From a virus (lineage: Duplodnaviria; Caudoviricetes), in the IMG/VR virus record IMGVR_UViG_3300022594_000001: a stretch of DNA of 64,000 bases, one strand, 5' to 3'. The notes beneath the pieces were generated by a model. That model had not been told where the DNA came from, did not search any database, and saw only the letters and a program-made list of their open reading frames with translations. Shown piece by piece: positions 24,289-33,854 of this stretch (position 1 is the stretch's first letter; each line of letters opens with the position of its first letter). Both the position numbers and the translations under genes were made by a program.

Positions 24289-24529
24289 ACTAGTATATAG
24301 TAGAGAATAGTTCTGGTGGGAGACAATTATGACGGGGTTTTAACGGGCCCAGAATTGGTCCCTTGCTCCGCAAAATCTAGTCGCGCAAAAAATATAAAAG
24401 AAGTACTTACAGATTCATGATGGTGATTTTGCGTCTATACCCACTGAAATTTGCACGCCAAAATTAACAATTAAGTATTAATTAAAAACGTATAGCCGGC
24501 CACCACTTTTAAAAAAAATCTTTTTATAT

Positions 24530-24576
24530 AGCCCCGACCGTTGAAATCTTTGAAACCTTTCAGTCGCTCCGGGGCT
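24530..24576. repeat. AGCCCC-N35-GGGGCT cassette
   Basis: TAGCCCCG..CGGGGCTA arms. Confidence 0.85.
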
Positions 24577-24654
24577 AGGTCCACAAGCTCGACACACAGC
24601 CCCACAAGAGCAGCGGTTGCTGCTGGCGATAAGGTATGGCTCTGCACAGCCGTT

Positions 24655-24690
24655 AAAAAGCCCTACAAGCTATTAACTGCGTGTAGGGCT
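24655..24690 (-). terminator. terminator downstream of the 24713-25078 gene
   Basis: AGCCCTACA..TGTAGGGCT then T5 on minus strand. Confidence 0.7.
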
Positions 24691-24712
24691 AGTAGGCTAT
24701 GCTAGTGCTAGC

Positions 24713-25078
24713 TTAGTGTAAGCGTAGCTTGCTTAGGAGTGCGTCCGTTGCCCGTTTAGCTTGTGCATCAGCGCCCTGTGCGCTTACAATGTGTTGCGTA
24801 ATGTCTAGCTCTGCACTGCCTGCTAAGTCTGCTACATGCTTTAACAGTGTGTCCATTACTGCACTTGCGCCAGCGTTCAGCTTTAACTGTGCTTCTAGCA
24901 TATTAGCCATGTGCATTTGTATGTGTTGCTCGTAGTCGTGTGCATAGTTTGTAGCAATCCACTCTGCTACTTCTACTTCGTCTTCTAGCTCTTTAACAAA
25001 AATAGCCAGCGTAATCATCTTGTTGTGCTCGTGTGCTTGCCCAATAAACGCTTTTTTAAGTTCCGCAGTTGTAGTCAT
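24713..25078 (-). CDS. early hypothetical protein (TC/CC-free coding strand)
   Basis: GGAGCG RBS, TGnTATACT promoter, terminator. Confidence 0.85.
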   Translation of the reverse strand: MTTTAELKKAFIGQAHEHNKMITLAIFVKELEDEVEVAEWIATNYAHDYEQHIQMHMANMLEAQLKLNAGASAVMDTLLKHVADLAGSAELDITQHIVSAQGADAQAKRATDALLSKLRLH

Positions 25079-25222
25079 CTTGCGCTCCTAGTAGTTGCAC
25101 TGCCCGTTGCAGTATTACAAGTATAACACCTTTTGTTAGTTGTGCAAAAGTCGTTTGTTGTATTTGTGCAACATGTGTTAGCCATACGCTAGTTGTTCAC
25201 GTTATACCTCGGGGCAGCAGTT

Positions 25223-25353
25223 AGCCCCAATGGGCAAAAGTAAACAGCAGCGTTGCGCAGCATTGGGGCTAAACCCCAATGAGCGCAGCTAACACATTGT
25301 CATTGGGGCTCAGCGTTAGCCCCTGGGTGCATTCTGCAGTAGTCTCTGTGGCT
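25223..25353. repeat. three tandem AGCCCC/GGGGCT cassettes
   Basis: Spacers 36, 27, 24 nt; TTAGCCCCAATG/CATTGGGGCTAA 12-bp arms. Confidence 0.8.
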
Positions 25354-25371
25354 TATACGTCGTGCAGAGTC

Positions 25372-25400
25372 AAAAAAAACCCGGAGTATTAGTCCGGGCT
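25372..25400 (-). terminator. terminator
   Basis: CCCGGA..TCCGGG then T8 on minus strand. Confidence 0.7.
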
Positions 25401-25438
25401 GTAAAAGTTGCCTTAGCGCAACTAGGAGGGTAAACTTG

Positions 25439-25615
25439 TTATGCTTCGCCTTCTATGCGTAGCATTATTAATCCTGCAAACATCAAGCAACAGCCGCCTA
25501 GGCTAACGAAGAAACTACCAAACACTTGCCAGTTGTTTAGTGCTGTCTCTACCCCGCCTACGCCACCAAATGCAATCAATAAACCTAGTAACAATACTGC
25601 TCCGCCTTTAGTCAT
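25439..25615 (-). CDS. small membrane protein (58 aa)
   Basis: AAGGAG RBS; two hydrophobic segments; below ORF-track cutoff. Confidence 0.7.
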   Translation of the reverse strand: MTKGGAVLLLGLLIAFGGVGGVETALNNWQVFGSFFVSLGGCCLMFAGLIMLRIEGEA

Positions 25616-25616
25616 A

Positions 25617-25778
25617 TCAAACTCCTTGTGGTGTTGTTAAAATAATTGTACGCTTAAACACACGCTCGTCAATGTCTATTAGCCTACTACGTCTAATAGC
25701 CTGCTTGCGACTAGGCGCCCAAATTTCTACGCAAACTGTACGACTAGCAAGTGCAATGGCAATAGTGTATTTGTTCAT
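25617..25778 (-). CDS. small basic protein (53 aa), leaderless
   Basis: TTGCAC-16-TATACT then 6 nt to ATG. Confidence 0.55.
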   Translation of the reverse strand: MNKYTIAIALASRTVCVEIWAPSRKQAIRRSRLIDIDERVFKRTIILTTPQGV

Positions 25779-25884
25779 GTAGCTAGTATACAGTCATTTT
25801 GAGCGTGTGCAACAATTATTTTTGTCTGTTGTAAAGTCACACGCCGCTGCGGTAGTTGCAGATTGGGCAGCTGGGGCTATGCTA

Positions 25885-25931
25885 CGCCCCACGGAGGCGA
25901 TTTCGCATTCAAGATTTCACCAGGTGGGGCT
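25885..25931. repeat. CGCCCC-N35-GGGGCT cassette
   Basis: GCCCCAC..GTGGGGC arms; extra GGGGCT at 25873. Confidence 0.75.
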
Positions 25932-25940
25932 AGCTTAGTT

Positions 25941-25969
25941 AAAAAAATAGCGTAGCCGTGCTACGCTAT
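25941..25969 (-). terminator. terminator
   Basis: ATAGCGTAGC-ACG-GCTACGCTAT then T tract on minus strand. Confidence 0.8.
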
Positions 25970-25982
25970 GCAATTGCTGCTG

Positions 25983-26591
25983 TTAAACAGTAAGGCTTTG
26001 CTTTTGTGCGTTAAGCTGTACAATGCTGTCTAGCGCAATTGTGCGCACTTGCACTGTATGCAGTACGTCGTGCGTTTTGTTATGCACTACATTTGTCCCC
26101 GCTAGTAAGTCCTTTGCTGCGCTAGCTGTTAGCAAGGCTGCTACTTGTTGCTTAGTTGCTAGCGTGTTGTCAATAAACAACAAGCTATTAGCTGTGTTGT
26201 AAATTGCAAACAAATAAAACTTAGTTGCGTCTGTTTTGTGTTGCACTAAACTAAAAGTACTAGTGTGTGCAAAGTAATTGTCTTGCTGCTCAAACCCCGC
26301 AACGTTTTGTGCAGCATTATCTGCAATTTGTGCGGCTGTGCGCTTAACTGCTGCTGCGTAAACGTTTTTAAAATCGTTAACGTTGTTAAAAAGCTGTATG
26401 CTAGCTTGTGTAACTTTTTGCACGTTAACTGCTTTGTGCGCTGCTGCTGTTTTTACTTGCGTAACTTGCAGTACGCTTGCTAGTGTTATGCCGCGCACGT
26501 TTTGCAGTAGTTGCGCTACTTGCTGTGCGGTAATTGTGTTGTTGTTTGCACGTTGTTGCAATGCTTGCTGTGCTGTTGCTAGTGTTAACAT
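25983..26591 (-). CDS. early hypothetical protein (TC-free coding strand)
   Basis: GGAGCG RBS, GGTGTTATAGT -10, terminator; 202 aa with no P/W/C. Confidence 0.85.
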   Translation of the reverse strand: MLTLATAQQALQQRANNNTITAQQVAQLLQNVRGITLASVLQVTQVKTAAAHKAVNVQKVTQASIQLFNNVNDFKNVYAAAVKRTAAQIADNAAQNVAGFEQQDNYFAHTSTFSLVQHKTDATKFYLFAIYNTANSLLFIDNTLATKQQVAALLTASAAKDLLAGTNVVHNKTHDVLHTVQVRTIALDSIVQLNAQKQSLTV

Positions 26592-26743
26592 TTTGCGCTC
26601 CTAGTTGTTGCTGTGCTTTATTGCACGTAGTAACTATAACACCATTTTTGCGTTTGTGCGCATTTTTTTTAAATTATTTTTGTTGTATTTGCGCAACACG
26701 CATAGCCGTGCAGCAATAAAGTTGATGAATTTATTAAGGTTCC

Positions 26744-26901
26744 GGGGCTGTGCATAGCCCCACAGGGGACCTCTAAGATATCAGATCGATCGCTGCGGGG
26801 CTAACCACACGTTAGAAACCTAGGCGAAGAAAATCAATTTGCGGGGCTAGCTACGCCCCAGTCTCAGCAGCGGCTGCGTAGCAGAAATTCAGAGTGGGGC
26901 G
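26744..26901. repeat. cassette cluster in divergent promoter region
   Basis: Units 26756/26797 (35 nt) and 26854/26896 (36 nt); extra GGGGCT at 26744 and 26843. Confidence 0.8.
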
Positions 26902-26942
26902 GATCCCCGGAGGCAATGTTGAAGTAACCTCCGCGGCAGTTG

Positions 26943-26970
26943 TTGACAGGTGTGCTTTTGGTGTTATACT
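26943..26970 (+). promoter_or_regulatory. early promoter
   Basis: TTGACA-16-TATACT with TTTTGGTGT extended -10, a motif shared with promoters at about 25120, 26635, 32340, 33375, 33790, 47215. Confidence 0.8.
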
Positions 26971-27000
26971 ATGAGTGTTATTAACTAACTAGGAGCGTGT

Positions 27001-27264
27001 ATGTACTGGGTTAAAACAGAAGTAAGCAGTTTTGAAGACGGACGCAAGTTGCTAGCCACATGCGAAACACTTGATGCTGCGATACAAGAGTGTGCGGAGT
27101 GGGCAGAATATGACGATGTGCGTGTTTGGGTAGAAGATCAACATGGCGGAATCGTTCACGAGTTTGAAGGTTACGCAGATGCGGTGGAGTTCTTGTATCC
27201 TGAAGAAGACGACGGACAACCTACAGAGTTAGAAGAATGGATGGACTTTGATCCAGATTGTTAA
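27001..27264 (+). CDS. small acidic early protein
   Basis: 26/87 D+E; C-terminal DDGQPTELEEWMDFDPDC; GGAGCG RBS. Confidence 0.85.
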   Translation: MYWVKTEVSSFEDGRKLLATCETLDAAIQECAEWAEYDDVRVWVEDQHGGIVHEFEGYADAVEFLYPEEDDGQPTELEEWMDFDPDC

Positions 27265-27283
27265 TACAATCTAACTAATCTAC

Positions 27284-27307
27284 AAGCAGGATTCGTCCTG
27301 CTTTTTT
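27284..27307 (+). terminator. terminator
   Basis: AAGCAGGA-TTCG-TCCTGCTT then T tract. Confidence 0.85.
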
Positions 27308-27639
27308 ATTTGTCACAAAGAGCCCCAAGTAGTTCTCTGCTGTAGTTCGCAGCAGTTTGGGGCTCTAGTCTTTTATTCTCCTAAAAGTCTCCGGATTCTC
27401 CAAAGCCCCACGGGAGCGCACATGATGAATTCATCTTTGTCGTTCGGGGCTATAGACGTAAGTTGTTGATTTATATAGACCGGTATTCTTAGCCCCGGAT
27501 CTGAATTCAGATGAATTCATCATCGCATCGGTGGGGCTAGGCGGTTTCCTGCAATCTATAATCTACTAAACAGCGGGGCCAGCCCCACCTACAGTGTGCG
27601 ACGCATACTTAGATTCTTGAGGCTCTGTGCAAAAAGATG

Positions 27640-27667
27640 TTGACAAGATCTAATTTTCTTTTACAAT
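27640..27667 (+). promoter_or_regulatory. orphan sigma70-type promoter
   Basis: TTGACA-16-TACAAT, no ORF downstream. Confidence 0.55.
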
Positions 27668-27780
27668 ACACATATGCAGTAGCGAAGCTCTGACTATAAT
27701 TTCTTTAGCCCCACTTACTACACATGCTGCTGCCCATGGGGCTCTGCGTAATACTAGTGAAAGCCATGACTAAAGTTTTC

Positions 27781-27845
27781 TTGACAGCAGCTTTTTTGCG
27801 TGTAAAGTTAGCAATACAGCAGCAATGCATAGATCTTTAAAAATT
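27781..27845 (+). promoter_or_regulatory. orphan promoter followed by boxA-like element
   Basis: TTGACA-16-TAAAGT then GATCTTTAAAAATT. Confidence 0.45.
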
Positions 27846-28061
27846 CATACAGAGGTAATTTTTGATGCTCAATCGGCTCGAGTGGGGCTTTAGACTAGCC
27901 TCGTTTGCAGCCACGTGGTCACATGCAGCAGGGTGGGGCTGTAGCCGTACGCAGGATATCGTTGAATAAATTCAACCTGCCCGGGGCTGTTAGTAAGTGC
28001 TTACTAACTTAGTAGCCGTGCGTTTTGGTTTATGGTTTCGATCATTCAGAGACGGGGTTGA

Positions 28062-28136
28062 TGGTCCGCCCTCCAGGAATCGAACCTGGATCCACAGCTT
28101 AGAAGGCTGCTGCACTGTCCATTGTGCTAAGGGCAG
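28062..28136 (-). tRNA. tRNA-Arg (UCU)
   Basis: Full cloverleaf, CT-TCT-AA loop, TTCGATT, encoded CCA. Confidence 0.95.
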
Positions 28137-28137
28137 A

Positions 28138-28212
28138 TGGTGGGCCAACTAGGAATTGAACCTAGACTCAATCGATTATGAGTCGACTGCTTTACCATTA
28201 AGCTATTGGCCC
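28138..28212 (-). tRNA. tRNA with CAU anticodon, probably Ile2 (lysidine type)
   Basis: Cloverleaf, GACTCATAATC arm as in ileX-type tRNAs, G1-C72 pair, encoded CCA. Confidence 0.9.
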
Positions 28213-28218
28213 AGGTTC

Positions 28219-28470
28219 TTATAGCTCGTAGGGCATTAACCCATCGTCTATCAAGTCTTCAATACGGTCTTCACGTTCTACATACTCAGCTTCTAAGTCG
28301 TCTGGCTTCATGTTGTTGTACTGTATGAAACCATTACCCTGTATGATATCAGCAAGGAAGTCGTAACTCCCCTCGTCGATATTCGTGAGTATTGTTCGGA
28401 TATCTTGCGCAGTCAAGCGTTCAATTACCTGCTCGCGTGTTAAGTCCTTGTAGAACTTAGTCGTTGCCAT
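28219..28470 (-). CDS. acidic hypothetical protein
   Basis: 83-aa ORF upstream of tRNAs. Confidence 0.75.
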   Translation of the reverse strand: MATTKFYKDLTREQVIERLTAQDIRTILTNIDEGSYDFLADIIQGNGFIQYNNMKPDDLEAEYVEREDRIEDLIDDGLMPYEL

Positions 28471-28648
28471 TTGTCGTGCTTTCGGATTCGTTTAATAGAT
28501 CTGCAATGCGTACTGCAATCTGTTCTGCTTCGTGCTCATTGTCACGTGCAATAATACACAGGACTCGCCCAGGAGGAGTACTCTTAAAGTCGCGAACTAC
28601 AACTCTGTTAGGTGTGTAGTCCTCGCTGAGCGAATATCCGTACCGCAT
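28457..28648 (-). CDS. hypothetical protein
   Basis: 63-aa ORF, coupled overlaps. Confidence 0.6.
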   Translation of the reverse strand: MRYGYSLSEDYTPNRVVVRDFKSTPPGRVLCIIARDNEHEAEQIAVRIADLLNESESTTNGND

Positions 28649-28956
28649 TAGGCTGCTGCTGTTGCCTTAGAGGCCACCACAGCGGGGCCTTTAGCCTTGC
28701 TAGCCTTAGGTGCCTTCTCTTCGAGATACTCTGCAATTGCTGCCTGTGCTGCTGCATCCTGATACTCGTCCATAGTCTGGATTGCCTTGACTGCTTCGTA
28801 CTTGGGCATTGGTGTGTCAAGCTCACACAAGCGAACGTCTTCGTGACCGTGCTTGTCTAGTACTTTAATTCGCATGATGTCTGTTGCGAATCGGACTTTA
28901 TACTCACCGTCGAGTTTACTTACGCCTACTACATTGAATAGTTTATCTGTTGCCAT
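28648..28956 (-). CDS. hypothetical protein with Ala/Lys-rich tail
   Basis: AGGAAGG RBS; TTGACG-17-TATAAT at 29045-29017. Confidence 0.8.
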   Translation of the reverse strand: MATDKLFNVVGVSKLDGEYKVRFATDIMRIKVLDKHGHEDVRLCELDTPMPKYEAVKAIQTMDEYQDAAAQAAIAEYLEEKAPKASKAKGPAVVASKATAAA

Positions 28957-28980
28957 AATATGCCTTCCTAATAAATTAAT

Positions 28981-29271
28981 TTAAATTGCCTTCGTCCGTT
29001 TTTTTGGACTTGCCTTATTATACAATCGTTTGGCAGCAACGTCAACCTTTTTAGGTATCTTTTGGCTGAACTCGCGATCGATATAATACTCTACGAGCAT
29101 ATTCTTAATCATAATAGTTAAGTCATAGCCCACATCATCTGGGCAGATAAAGCGTACAGGACACTTACCCCACCCTTGATATTCTAGGAACTCAGCGTAC
29201 CATTTGCGGTGATCTTTGTTACGTGGATCGAATGCAACTAAAGGTCGAGCGAAGTATTCTAGTTTGCTCAT
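28981..29271 (-). CDS. hypothetical protein
   Basis: 96-aa ORF, WGKCPVRF. Confidence 0.75.
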   Translation of the reverse strand: MSKLEYFARPLVAFDPRNKDHRKWYAEFLEYQGWGKCPVRFICPDDVGYDLTIMIKNMLVEYYIDREFSQKIPKKVDVAAKRLYNKASPKKRTKAI

Positions 29272-29486
29272 AAGTATTTTTGTAAAACCTCGTTAGCTAA
29301 GTTAGTATCTTGAATCGTATCGAGCATGGCCCACACCATTAAATTCATAACCGTACGGGCTTCTCGTTGTTGATCCTCCGGCAGAGTTGCAATGAAGCTC
29401 ATTACATCATCTGTTGTGTCTAGGCCCCACATAACATCTGCTAGGGCCCGTTGGCGTTTCGTTAGACCATCAATCAAAATATCCAT
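29268..29486 (-). CDS. hypothetical protein
   Basis: MDILIDGLTKRQ, coupled to neighbours. Confidence 0.7.
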   Translation of the reverse strand: MDILIDGLTKRQRALADVMWGLDTTDDVMSFIATLPEDQQREARTVMNLMVWAMLDTIQDTNLANEVLQKYL

Positions 29487-29631
29487 CGTCACGCCCCTTA
29501 TGTTTAGGTCGACGTTGATACGTACCTTTCTTTGGCTCTTCCTTCTTTGGCCAGAACGGAGAGTCATCTTGGAAAAGTACACGATGAGCGCGAGTCTTTT
29601 TGCGCTGTGGAACTTGTTTCAAATGCATCAT
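29470..29631 (-). CDS. ArfA-like ribosome-rescue factor candidate (53 aa)
   Basis: SPFWPKKEEPKKGTYQRRPKHKG resembles the ArfA core; TTGACT-17-TATAAT upstream. Confidence 0.45.
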   Translation of the reverse strand: MMHLKQVPQRKKTRAHRVLFQDDSPFWPKKEEPKKGTYQRRPKHKGRDDGYFD

Positions 29632-29672
29632 GTTAGTATATATCCAACGTCGTTCAAAATTGTATTATACAC

Positions 29673-29825
29673 TCAAAGCAAGCGATAGTCAAGTGGGCTA
29701 TTGTGATAGGCAGCTTGTAGTTCAAACTGATCTACACCGTATGCTTGAACAGTGTCTATGACTGCTTGTACGTAATCGCATCCCAACAACATAAGTTGTT
29801 TCATGTGTGCTACTGCTTGGTTCAT
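29673..29825 (-). CDS. small hypothetical protein
   Basis: GGAGCGCGAA RBS, TTGACC-16-TATAAT. Confidence 0.7.
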   Translation of the reverse strand: MNQAVAHMKQLMLLGCDYVQAVIDTVQAYGVDQFELQAAYHNSPLDYRLL

Positions 29826-29897
29826 TTCGCGCTCCTTTTTGTTAAACAATGTGTATATTATACAGCCAAAATCCAAAAGGTCAACCAAAATATTTCT

Positions 29898-29933
29898 AGC
29901 CCCACAGGCTTATTCAAGGCAATCTGTGGGGCT
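29898..29933. repeat. AGCCCC-N24-GGGGCT cassette
   Basis: TAGCCCCACAG/CTGTGGGGCTA 11-bp arms. Confidence 0.85.
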
Positions 29934-29942
29934 ACTCTAGCC

Positions 29943-30035
29943 AAAAAAAAGCCCTAGCATACCGGGAGCGAATCGGGTTTATAGCTAGGGCTTACCACTA
30001 CTAAGGGCTTACCGGGAGCGAATCGTTGGGCCCTT
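29943..30035 (-). ncRNA. tandem-hairpin 3'-UTR RNA/terminator with anti-RBS loops
   Basis: Two stems each enclosing CGAUUCGCUCCCGGUA; second ends in U8. Confidence 0.6.
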
Positions 30036-30054
30036 TACCACACATGTTGCGATC

Positions 30055-30957
30055 TTAGTGTCGCATACACGTTACCTGGGCAGTAGCTTGCCAGTTGCTA
30101 GGCAAACTCTTGCGCAAATCTGCTACCTTAAGAACCATACGCAAAGACAACTCTCGCATCTTGTTCTTATTTAGATCGATAAAGTCTACGATCTCTTGCT
30201 TCTGAGCATCATCAAACTCGTATACATCAAGCATGCCGTCGCCTACAATTTGCTTGATACGCAGCATTTTTTCACGGGTTGTATCTATAGTCAAGTCCAG
30301 GTAGTGACAACGCGACTCTAGGGCTTCTAAGTGATCACGCAGCTTACGCGATTTAACGTGATCGAACTTGATGTTTGTGATAAAGATTGCCCCACCCGCA
30401 AACTCGAACGAGTTGGGTACGGCTTCGTCTTTGAGCGCACGTGAGTCCGTGTTCCAACAAATGACTCGTTTCTTGCTGCTGTCTAAGGCTGCTTTAAGAA
30501 TGTTCAGCGACAAGTCGTCAAGCAGGACGCTATCGCAGTCATCGAAGACAAGGATGCATTTACGATCCTTATACTCATAGAGTTTTTTGTACAGACCCAA
30601 GGCACTCATAGCCCCTTTGACAATCTCGTACTTCTTGAGCTTTGAGTCATTGGCTACGTCTGCGAATACGTCGTGTTTCGATAACACTGTTTCAACACCA
30701 TAGCTCTTGCCAACCCCGGGCGGGCCTGAGACAATCATAGCCCGAACGTGTCCGGCTTTACATGCTCGAGTCATGTCGTCTAAGATGCTAAACCTCGCTC
30801 GTAGACGCTCGATAATCTCGGCATCAGTCTCATGGCTAAGGTCCTTGTCAACTGCTTCGAGTTCAAGACTTCTTACTTCTACTTTAGAAGGCTTGGTGGC
30901 ATTTGCCTGCGTTTCTAAAGCGTTAACCATTTCTAATGTCCATACCTTTCCAACCAT
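30055..30957 (-). CDS. AAA+ family ATPase
   Basis: GPPGVGKS, LVFDDCD, FITN, ALESRC. Confidence 0.85.
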   Translation of the reverse strand: MVGKVWTLEMVNALETQANATKPSKVEVRSLELEAVDKDLSHETDAEIIERLRARFSILDDMTRACKAGHVRAMIVSGPPGVGKSYGVETVLSKHDVFADVANDSKLKKYEIVKGAMSALGLYKKLYEYKDRKCILVFDDCDSVLLDDLSLNILKAALDSSKKRVICWNTDSRALKDEAVPNSFEFAGGAIFITNIKFDHVKSRKLRDHLEALESRCHYLDLTIDTTREKMLRIKQIVGDGMLDVYEFDDAQKQEIVDFIDLNKNKMRELSLRMVLKVADLRKSLPSNWQATAQVTCMRH

Positions 30958-31021
30958 AGTCGCTCCTATAATTATTAATGTAATCCGCTATTATAACAAG
31001 GGCCGAAGCCCTTGTCAAGTT

Positions 31022-31453: not shown

Positions 31454-31518
31454 GTTTCGCTCCTAGGTTAAAGTTGAATTCGTGTGGGCTCTCTCGTTGG
31501 CCCACCCACGTTACTTCA

Positions 31519-31914: not shown

Positions 31915-31949
31915 TTGGTTCGCTCCAATTGCTGTTGTTGAAGTGTTAA

Positions 31950-32294: not shown

Positions 32295-32400
32295 GTTTCG
32301 CTCCATGTGTGTTGCTGCACTATCGCAGTATCATAACTATAACACCAAAAAAGCCAAAATCAAAATTATTTTATCAGTAGTTTCACTAATGTTGTATTTG

Positions 32401-33339: not shown

Positions 33340-33404
33340 AGTTTCGCTCCTATGTGTGTTAAGTTAGAACTAGTATAGCACCAAAAAGATGCTGGTCAAC
33401 CAAT

Positions 33405-33758: not shown

Positions 33759-33854
33759 GGTTCGCTCCTAGTTAGTATGTCATAAGTATAGCACCAAAAT
33801 ACCAAGAGCAAGAGAAATTTTGCCAGTATTTTCCATGAGTTGCCAAAAAACAAC

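Follow-up and report, generated by a model that had tools for sequence, protein, structure and literature searches.

To our knowledge, lytic phages have so far yielded few regulatory RNAs, and proteins (T4 RegB and RegA) are the only understood agents of class-wide early-gene shut-off. In bacteria, RNAIII and RsaE of Staphylococcus aureus and LhrC of Listeria carry C/U-rich hairpin loops that pair with the Shine-Dalgarno (SD) regions of several mRNAs; these are stand-alone sRNAs aimed at generic G-rich SDs and not at a private extended tag.

Several described systems resemble the element reported here. The cuckoo / alpha-r14 sRNAs of Alphaproteobacteria consist of two to four adjacent hairpins with variable, co-varying stems and a common anti-SD-like loop motif (PMC4615179). 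In the icaR mRNA of S. aureus, an anti-SD motif in the 3'UTR pairs with the SD region and blocks initiation (PMC3868564). Phages P1 and P7 make an antisense RNA, c4, which belongs to the same transcription unit as its target and whose loops are complementary to the sequence around the target ribosome-binding site (RBS) (PMC12197685). Among proteins, the endoribonuclease RegB and the repressor RegA of T4 exert class-wide post-transcriptional shut-off of early mRNAs via their translation initiation regions, the RegB sites being GGAG with a 3' extension in early RBSs (PMC3014915). T4-like phages also contain PeSL cassettes, in which a stem-loop lies just upstream of a sigma-70-like early promoter, an SD and a start codon, and which are not described as SD-complementary (PMC4122927).

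The window analysed here, a stretch of 64,000 nucleotides, originates from an uncultured aquatic phage whose replication genes are T4-like (UvsX-, UvsW- and gp41-like) and which also encodes several 2OG-Fe(II) oxygenases. The exact window DNA was found in pond and freshwater metagenomes. BLASTN of the region against GenBank phages gave no match, a 16-nt match being unable to reach the E-value limit at such a query length. The block at 25–34 kb has a GC content of 44–46% and many sigma-70-like promoters. It includes the gene of an AAA ATPase, the closest GenBank phage match of which is only 50% identical (PA5oct group); therefore, there is no cultured relative within that collection. The gene and its promoter are as follows.

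30055–30957, minus strand: AAA ATPase gene (phrog_1250, T4 NrdC.10-like), conserved as the gene upstream of the RNA element; stop codon TAA at 30057–30055.
30990–31018, minus strand: consensus sigma-70 promoter of the ATPase and RNA unit, TTGACA-17-TATAAT with TG (extended -10), 12/12 matches.

Adjacent tRNA-Arg(TCT) and tRNA-Met(CAT) genes are located within the early module (28062–28212, minus strand), and relatives have two or three tRNAs at a comparable position. DNA contigs from the metagenome of one pond fuse position 24409 or 24430 to 29961 and omit approximately 5.5 kb, which indicates that the block of tRNAs and small ORFs is variable among co-occurring relatives, being present in some and absent from others.

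An earlier note on this DNA had described two hairpins on the minus strand after the ATPase stop codon. Reading of the minus strand (30069–29943) showed this description to be correct to the base, including the identical 16-mer CGATTCGCTCCCGGTA in both loops, and the element lies where it had been placed, on the ATPase strand, after the stop codon and ending in a terminator. The order of the transcription unit is promoter, tagged RBS, ATPase, hairpins and terminator. Three hairpins can be listed.

30048–30065, minus strand: small first hairpin of 5 bp, recognised by eye; its loop CACUAAGA holds the ATPase stop codon.
30003–30035, minus strand: anti-RBS hairpin 1, AAGGGC / 21-nt loop / GCCCTT, with a 6-bp stem and the 16-mer at 30025–30010 (sequence, alignment and covariance model).
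29943–29993, minus strand: anti-RBS hairpin 2, an intrinsic terminator, AAGCCCTAGC / 25-nt loop / GCTAGGGCTT, with a 10-bp stem and the 16-mer at 29975–29960 (sequence; 21 homologous terminator hairpins with differing stems).

The stem of hairpin 2 spans 29993–29949 and is GC-rich, and it is directly followed by a run of eight T (U) at 29950–29943; hairpin 1 has no U-run. The 25-nt loop of hairpin 2 is beyond the size of a short terminator loop (3–8 nt), and a consensus terminator scanner does not report this hairpin. The 16-mer is present in only two copies in the 64 kb, even when three mismatches are allowed, with 0.13 expected. Both hairpins are folded by ViennaRNA, with an inner helix (CCG/CGG in hairpin 2 and CG/CG in hairpin 1) that is predicted to leave AUUCGCUCC as a 9-nt apical loop in each. 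The folding z-score of the whole region was unremarkable (-0.66), and the structural evidence is therefore comparative and not thermodynamic. In relatives, the loop CACUAAGA of the small hairpin recurs on different stems, often well downstream of the stop codon, and for this reason the small hairpin seems to be a conserved RNA module in its own right.

A cmscan search of 28–32 kb against Rfam with E-values up to 5 returned only tRNAs and chance matches, with no sequence or Rfam similarity to c4, and six related loci were likewise without an Rfam match. Searching the full text of the literature for the loop or tag sequences yielded primers only, and no published description was found. We take the likeness between GGGAGCGAA and 16S helix 24, and that between UACCGG and helix 45, to be a probable coincidence and set it aside.

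The core of the loop is complementary to the octamer GGAGCGAA, which occurs seven times in the window with 0.78 expected, a count reached by none of 100 shuffles. Two of these copies are the antisense of the two loops. The others form the RBSs of five early genes, as the earlier note had claimed (minus-strand sites 31456, 31919, 32297, 33343 and 33761); the gap to the start codon is 2–4 nt (6–8 nt from GGAG), and the ORFs encode 114–232 aa. Its further claim of five RBSs that match the loop over 6–7 nt also holds, with four on the minus strand, including that of the ATPase, and one on the plus strand.

33761–33768, minus strand: target-type RBS GGAGCGAA of an L5 gp82-like gene (start 33758), by motif count.
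33343–33350, minus strand: target-type RBS GGAGCGAA of a GP88-like gene (start 33339), by motif count.
32297–32304, minus strand: target-type RBS GGAGCGAA (start 32294), by motif count.
31919–31926, minus strand: target-type RBS GGAGCGAA of an LPD29-domain gene (start 31914), by motif count.
31456–31463, minus strand: target-type RBS GGAGCGAA (start 31453), by motif count.
30960–30966, minus strand: ATPase RBS GGAGCGA, 7 nt complementary to the loops (start 30957), by motif and duplex prediction.
29830–29835, minus strand: RBS GGAGCG, 6 nt complementary, of a 50-aa gene just downstream (start 29825) with its own promoter at 29884–29857, by motif.
26596–26601, minus strand: RBS GGAGCG of a 202-aa gene (start 26591), by motif.
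25083–25088, minus strand: RBS GGAGCG of a 121-aa gene (start 25078), by motif.
26992–26997, plus strand: RBS of the GGAGCG/GGAGCGA type (start 27001), by motif.

All 10 GGAGCG-type RBSs of window ORFs of at least 40 aa are inside 25.1–33.8 kb, and the loop-complementary RBSs are restricted to the sigma-70-driven early module (25–34 kb). In the RBSs of the remaining window genes, GGAG is followed by A or T. An AGCCCC...GGGGCT hairpin at 29897–29934 (minus strand), followed by the sigma-70 promoter at 29857–29884, an RBS and a start codon, forms a PeSL-like cassette; this hairpin is one member of a dispersed inverted-repeat family of the window.

The canonical 16S tail can pair only with the GGAG part of the tag. 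The predicted duplex energy of a tagged RBS is -13 to -14 kcal/mol with its cognate loop and -5.6 to -8.8 kcal/mol with the 16S tail, and the corresponding predictions for the ATPase RBS are -13.1 and -6.5 kcal/mol. The untagged genes of the window are predicted to reach -6.0 kcal/mol with the loop, and non-cognate loop/tag pairs only about -5 to -7 kcal/mol. When the window was scanned for duplex energy with the whole 21-nt loop, the results were noisy, the tagged RBSs being poorly singled out and not ranked first. The exact-motif counts are more informative.

Relatives of the element were collected from IMG/VR. An exact scan for the 16-mer gave 102 loci. In most of them it forms part of a hairpin loop, on a stem that varies by locus and is often followed by a T-run. 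In all, 35 distinct instances start right behind the codons of the conserved ATPase C-terminus (Cys-Met-Arg) with two or three loops each, and one relative has five loops. The ATPases upstream of the loops are 69–76% identical to the window protein, and the synteny and orientation are consistent, with the ATPase directly upstream and the T-run on the ATPase strand. On the RNA strand of the 102 loci, 201 of the 203 copies of GGAGCGAA precede a start codon by 0–6 nt. A profile search with the ATPase found more than 516 relatives, the best 80 of which were examined. Orthologous ATPase genes were followed on the 3' side by 94 distinct CGCUCC-loop hairpins with 78 different 5' arms; the stem extends over 6 bp or more without a gap in 85% of them, compared with 29% after shuffling of the 3' flanks, and the mean stem lengths are 8.9 and 4.9 bp, respectively.

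The gapless alignment of hairpin 1 (n = 25) contains compensatory changes in all seven outer pairs (7/7), and its covariation score was reached by none of 500 shuffles. The alignment cells are paired to 96.4%, compared with 23–40% when the partner is slid by 1–3 columns, while the 21-nt loop is variable at a single position (T or C). A covariance model of hairpin 1 gave 54 bits for the hairpin in the window and detected no copies in the window beyond the known two. The stem registers of the terminator hairpins differ by 0–2 nt, and for 21 of these hairpins aligned without gaps RNAalifold therefore found no more than the inner CCG/CGG helix and a portion of the stem; these stems were assessed per sequence instead. 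Among 185,579 cellular species genomes, the loop gave at least 120 matches in unrelated, mostly high-GC taxa, none listed with a hairpin and T-run, and the cellular matches are therefore read as chance and give no clue to the host. The hairpins are a real and widespread RNA element of phages.

A second conserved non-coding stretch is present at 24380–24560 (minus strand), where two GGTCGGGGCTATATAA-like motifs are followed by AAAATCACCA and then AAGTACTTCTTTTATATTTTTTGCGCG. A stretch of this type lies directly behind the anti-RBS terminator in most relatives and 5.4 kb away from it in the window. It may contain promoters, an origin or another RNA.

A second clade among the ATPase relatives (class B), more fully recovered by a second profile search, has the same layout as the clade with the CGCUCC loop (class A), i.e., ATPase, one to four hairpins, terminator, sigma-70 promoter and RBS. 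The class B loops carry GCCCUC, usually as UGCCCUC, and the RBS of the class B genes, including the ATPase, is AAGAGGGCAA. The RBS counts are given below.

Class A, 36 loci, loop CGCUCC: RBS GGAGCG 139, GAGGGC 3.
Class B, 39 rows (about 33 distinct contigs), loop GCCCUC: RBS GGAGCG 5, GAGGGC 185.
More distant, 74 loci, neither loop motif within 320 nt downstream of the ATPase: RBS GGAGCG 43, GAGGGC 1.

No locus of class A or class B was discordant in loop and tag. The earlier note had named a loop that does not follow the RBS motif in relatives as one observation that would speak against its proposal; the loop does follow the motif, the two classes differing in both partners. GGAGCG and GAGGGC differ at four positions, all of which are mirrored in the loop (4/4), and the class-distinguishing loop bases (UUCG versus UGC) fall outside the part in common with the 16S tail. 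The nominal Fisher p-value of 4e-83 overstates the independence of the data because the co-variation represents about one evolutionary switch between two clades. This co-variation is the outcome predicted by the pairing model and not by the rival models. A few class A relatives (L118 and L133) have CGCUCC loops and yet mostly GGAGCA-type RBSs, with pairing over 5 nt only. In an intermediate clade the tag is present, and a coding gene, not the element, adjoins the ATPase; five contigs of this clade have the same loop in hairpins elsewhere.

Since a strong sigma-70 promoter is situated just upstream of the ATPase, the RNA would most simply be made as the 3'UTR of the ATPase mRNA. In the relatives examined, a recognisable sigma-70 promoter also precedes the ATPase, with the strict pattern in 17/28. 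The TAAATA at 30173–30168, which had been suggested as a late start, is indeed present in the window; as a late start it is not supported, being found in one of 60 related elements, namely the window itself. In two metatranscriptome studies there are contigs that span the element, an 818-nt contig over 29864–30681 and a 191-nt contig over 29926–30058 (a relative). They are a weak hint of expression, because contigs from RNA libraries can contain DNA and show no strand, ends or level. One metatranscriptome contig (RNA run X14) begins or ends at 30003, where it is joined to an Illumina adapter tail and CAAAAAA (A6). This contig may stem from a related phage in which hairpin 1 itself is the terminator and the RNA stops in a U-run immediately behind it.

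The cuckoo / alpha-r14 sRNAs are the closest in architecture to the phage element, which likewise has two to five hairpins with 78 stems and a fixed loop. The loop motif is CCUCCUCCC in the former and AUUCGCUCC (class A) or GCCCUC (class B) in the latter. The cuckoo / alpha-r14 RNAs are bacterial, chromosomal and stand-alone genes with an Rfam model, whereas the phage element has no Rfam match, and only the phage loop matches and co-varies with a private, lineage-specific RBS extension. The likeness to icaR and c4 is mechanistic. As in icaR, the anti-SD motif of the phage element is in a 3'UTR, between the ATPase stop codon and the terminator; however, icaR regulates its own mRNA via one UCCCC motif, while the phage element has two to five loops complementary to a tag common to many genes, and the loop is also found behind tag-less genes. 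As in c4, the loops complement RBSs within the same phage, but c4 controls a single operon (icd-ant) in temperate phages and is released by processing of the 5' leader of the immI operon transcript, whereas the phage element is at the 3' end of the ATPase transcript. T4 RegB and RegA are the closest functional analogues; they are proteins, and here the recognising partner would be an RNA. The PeSL layout occurs just downstream of the element (hairpin at about 29934–29897 and promoter at 29884–29857), but it is the loop that is conserved in the anti-RBS hairpins and the stem that is conserved in PeSLs.

The hairpin element is best explained as a 3'UTR-borne anti-RBS regulatory RNA, an assignment that we consider reasonably probable. 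The region 30065–29943 (minus strand) would be the structured 3'UTR of a short early transcript composed of the sigma-70 promoter, the ATPase, the RNA element and the terminator. Each of the two hairpins would offer the 9-nt loop, the Watson-Crick complement of GGAGCGAAU, and GGAGCGAAU is a lineage-specific SD extension that tags the early genes of the module. Most likely, the RNA would base-pair with the tagged RBSs and compete there with the 16S rRNA tail, which matches GGAG only. The acting form may be a part of the ATPase mRNA or a stable 3' fragment, presumably generated by processing and guarded by the terminator hairpin. The outcome would be translational control of the early gene class, possibly together with decay, and most plausibly repression. 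Because the RNA is co-transcribed with the tagged genes, a simple off switch would need a delay or accumulation step, which is assumed here.

Such an RNA could act on its carrier alone, in the manner of icaR (PMC3868564), with the loops folding back on the RBS of the ATPase mRNA and regulating only that gene. The ATPase RBS is tagged in most relatives (at least GGAGCG in 22/24 full-length class A genes, with GGAGCGAA in 13, and GAGGGC in 5/6 class B genes), the element is tied to the ATPase by synteny, and in the window the 7-nt pairing with the ATPase RBS is joined by a second GUUGG segment. However, two further conserved small genes, of ~100 aa starting with MATDKKFAVAGVST and of ~90 aa starting with MKRFNPETKTFKVF, have the same anti-RBS loop in their 3'UTRs, each followed by a separate terminator and neither with a tag in its own RBS. 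Two to five loops per RNA and a tag on ~40% of the neighbouring genes would also be superfluous for self-regulation, and we consider a purely cis-acting 3'UTR unlikely. In addition, one 280-kb contig has two such hairpins together with a gene for a CsgF-like secreted protein, which is preceded by a TAAATA-type promoter and has a leader that complements the loop across all 16 nt of the 16-mer. Trans action on several mRNAs is favoured over pure self-regulation by the loops behind tag-less genes, by this leader match and by the number of loops per RNA, and self-regulation of the ATPase mRNA is possible in addition. The relatives with the loop behind the MATDKKFAVAGVST or MKRFNPETKTFKVF gene are L003, L019, L026, L188 and L190–L192. 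CsgF-like (curli type VIII secretion) genes with a TAAATA-type promoter are present in relatives at L396:1053–1499, L397:1020–1499 and L402:1020–1499, with a leader that complements the loop exactly over 16 nt in L396 and L397 and is a close variant in L402; the 64-kb window has no CsgF-like homologue.

Other explanations dispense with pairing between two RNAs. The hairpins could bind a protein or the ribosome, either as an anti-SD mimic for a phage or host factor or as a terminator loop for a termination or antitermination factor, and the RBS complementarity would then be a by-product. The CUCC or CCUC in the loops, which resembles the 16S tail, and the position of the hairpins at transcript ends, with hairpin 2 being a terminator, would agree with this. 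It is nevertheless quite unlikely, in that the bases that differ between the classes are outside the 16S-shared part and still exactly mirror the tag, and a protein is not expected to force complementarity between two RNAs. An origin at the DNA level is also conceivable, with PeSL-type promoter-terminator cassettes that shuffle genes in the hyperplastic regions of T4-like phages and a uniform RBS that results from homogenisation of the cassettes. The region does have the PeSL arrangement, in which a stem-loop is followed by a sigma-70 promoter, an SD and a start codon (PMC4122927), and the 5.5-kb block next to the element is present or absent depending on the genome, as in the contigs that join 24409/24430 to 29961. 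PeSLs, however, conserve stems and promoters, while here the stems turn over and the loop alone is fixed, and homogenisation leaves unexplained why the RBS should have an inverted complement that shifts in step with it in the second clade, so that we regard this origin as very unlikely. Finally, the earlier note had offered the opposite strand as an alternative, its GGAG loops serving as a sponge for a CsrA/Rsm-type protein or, as might be added, for ribosomes. The plus strand would fold equally well, with loops GGGAGCGAA, but its hairpins have an A-run before and no T-run after them and would be antisense into the ATPase gene, whereas a T-run is on the ATPase strand in every relative examined and follows the hairpin in every copy seen that ends the element. 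The T-run and the ATPase orientation fix the transcribed strand, and therefore the displayed loop is of the CUCC type, with GGA motifs absent from the loops of that strand. A sponge on the opposite strand is thus extremely improbable.

The anti-RBS regulatory RNA may be part of a more general scheme, which we put forward tentatively as a possibility. Whole clades of aquatic T4-like phages would give their early genes a private code at the RBS (GGAGCGAA in one clade and GAGGGCAA in another), read by multi-loop 3'UTR RNAs as an RNA-only timer that switches off or gates the early class; code and reader would co-evolve, and the system would be the RNA counterpart of RegB/RegA. The element family comprises at least about 100 of the contigs examined, and its ATPase has more than 500 relatives in IMG/VR. 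In this family, a lineage-specific SD extension goes together with an RNA complementary to it, and two clades provide a natural compensatory swap. The two loop/tag combinations are ready orthogonal pairs of RBS tag and anti-tag, and the tag may serve as a marker of early genes in uncultured phage genomes. The element thus provides a testable model for RNA-based temporal control in phages.
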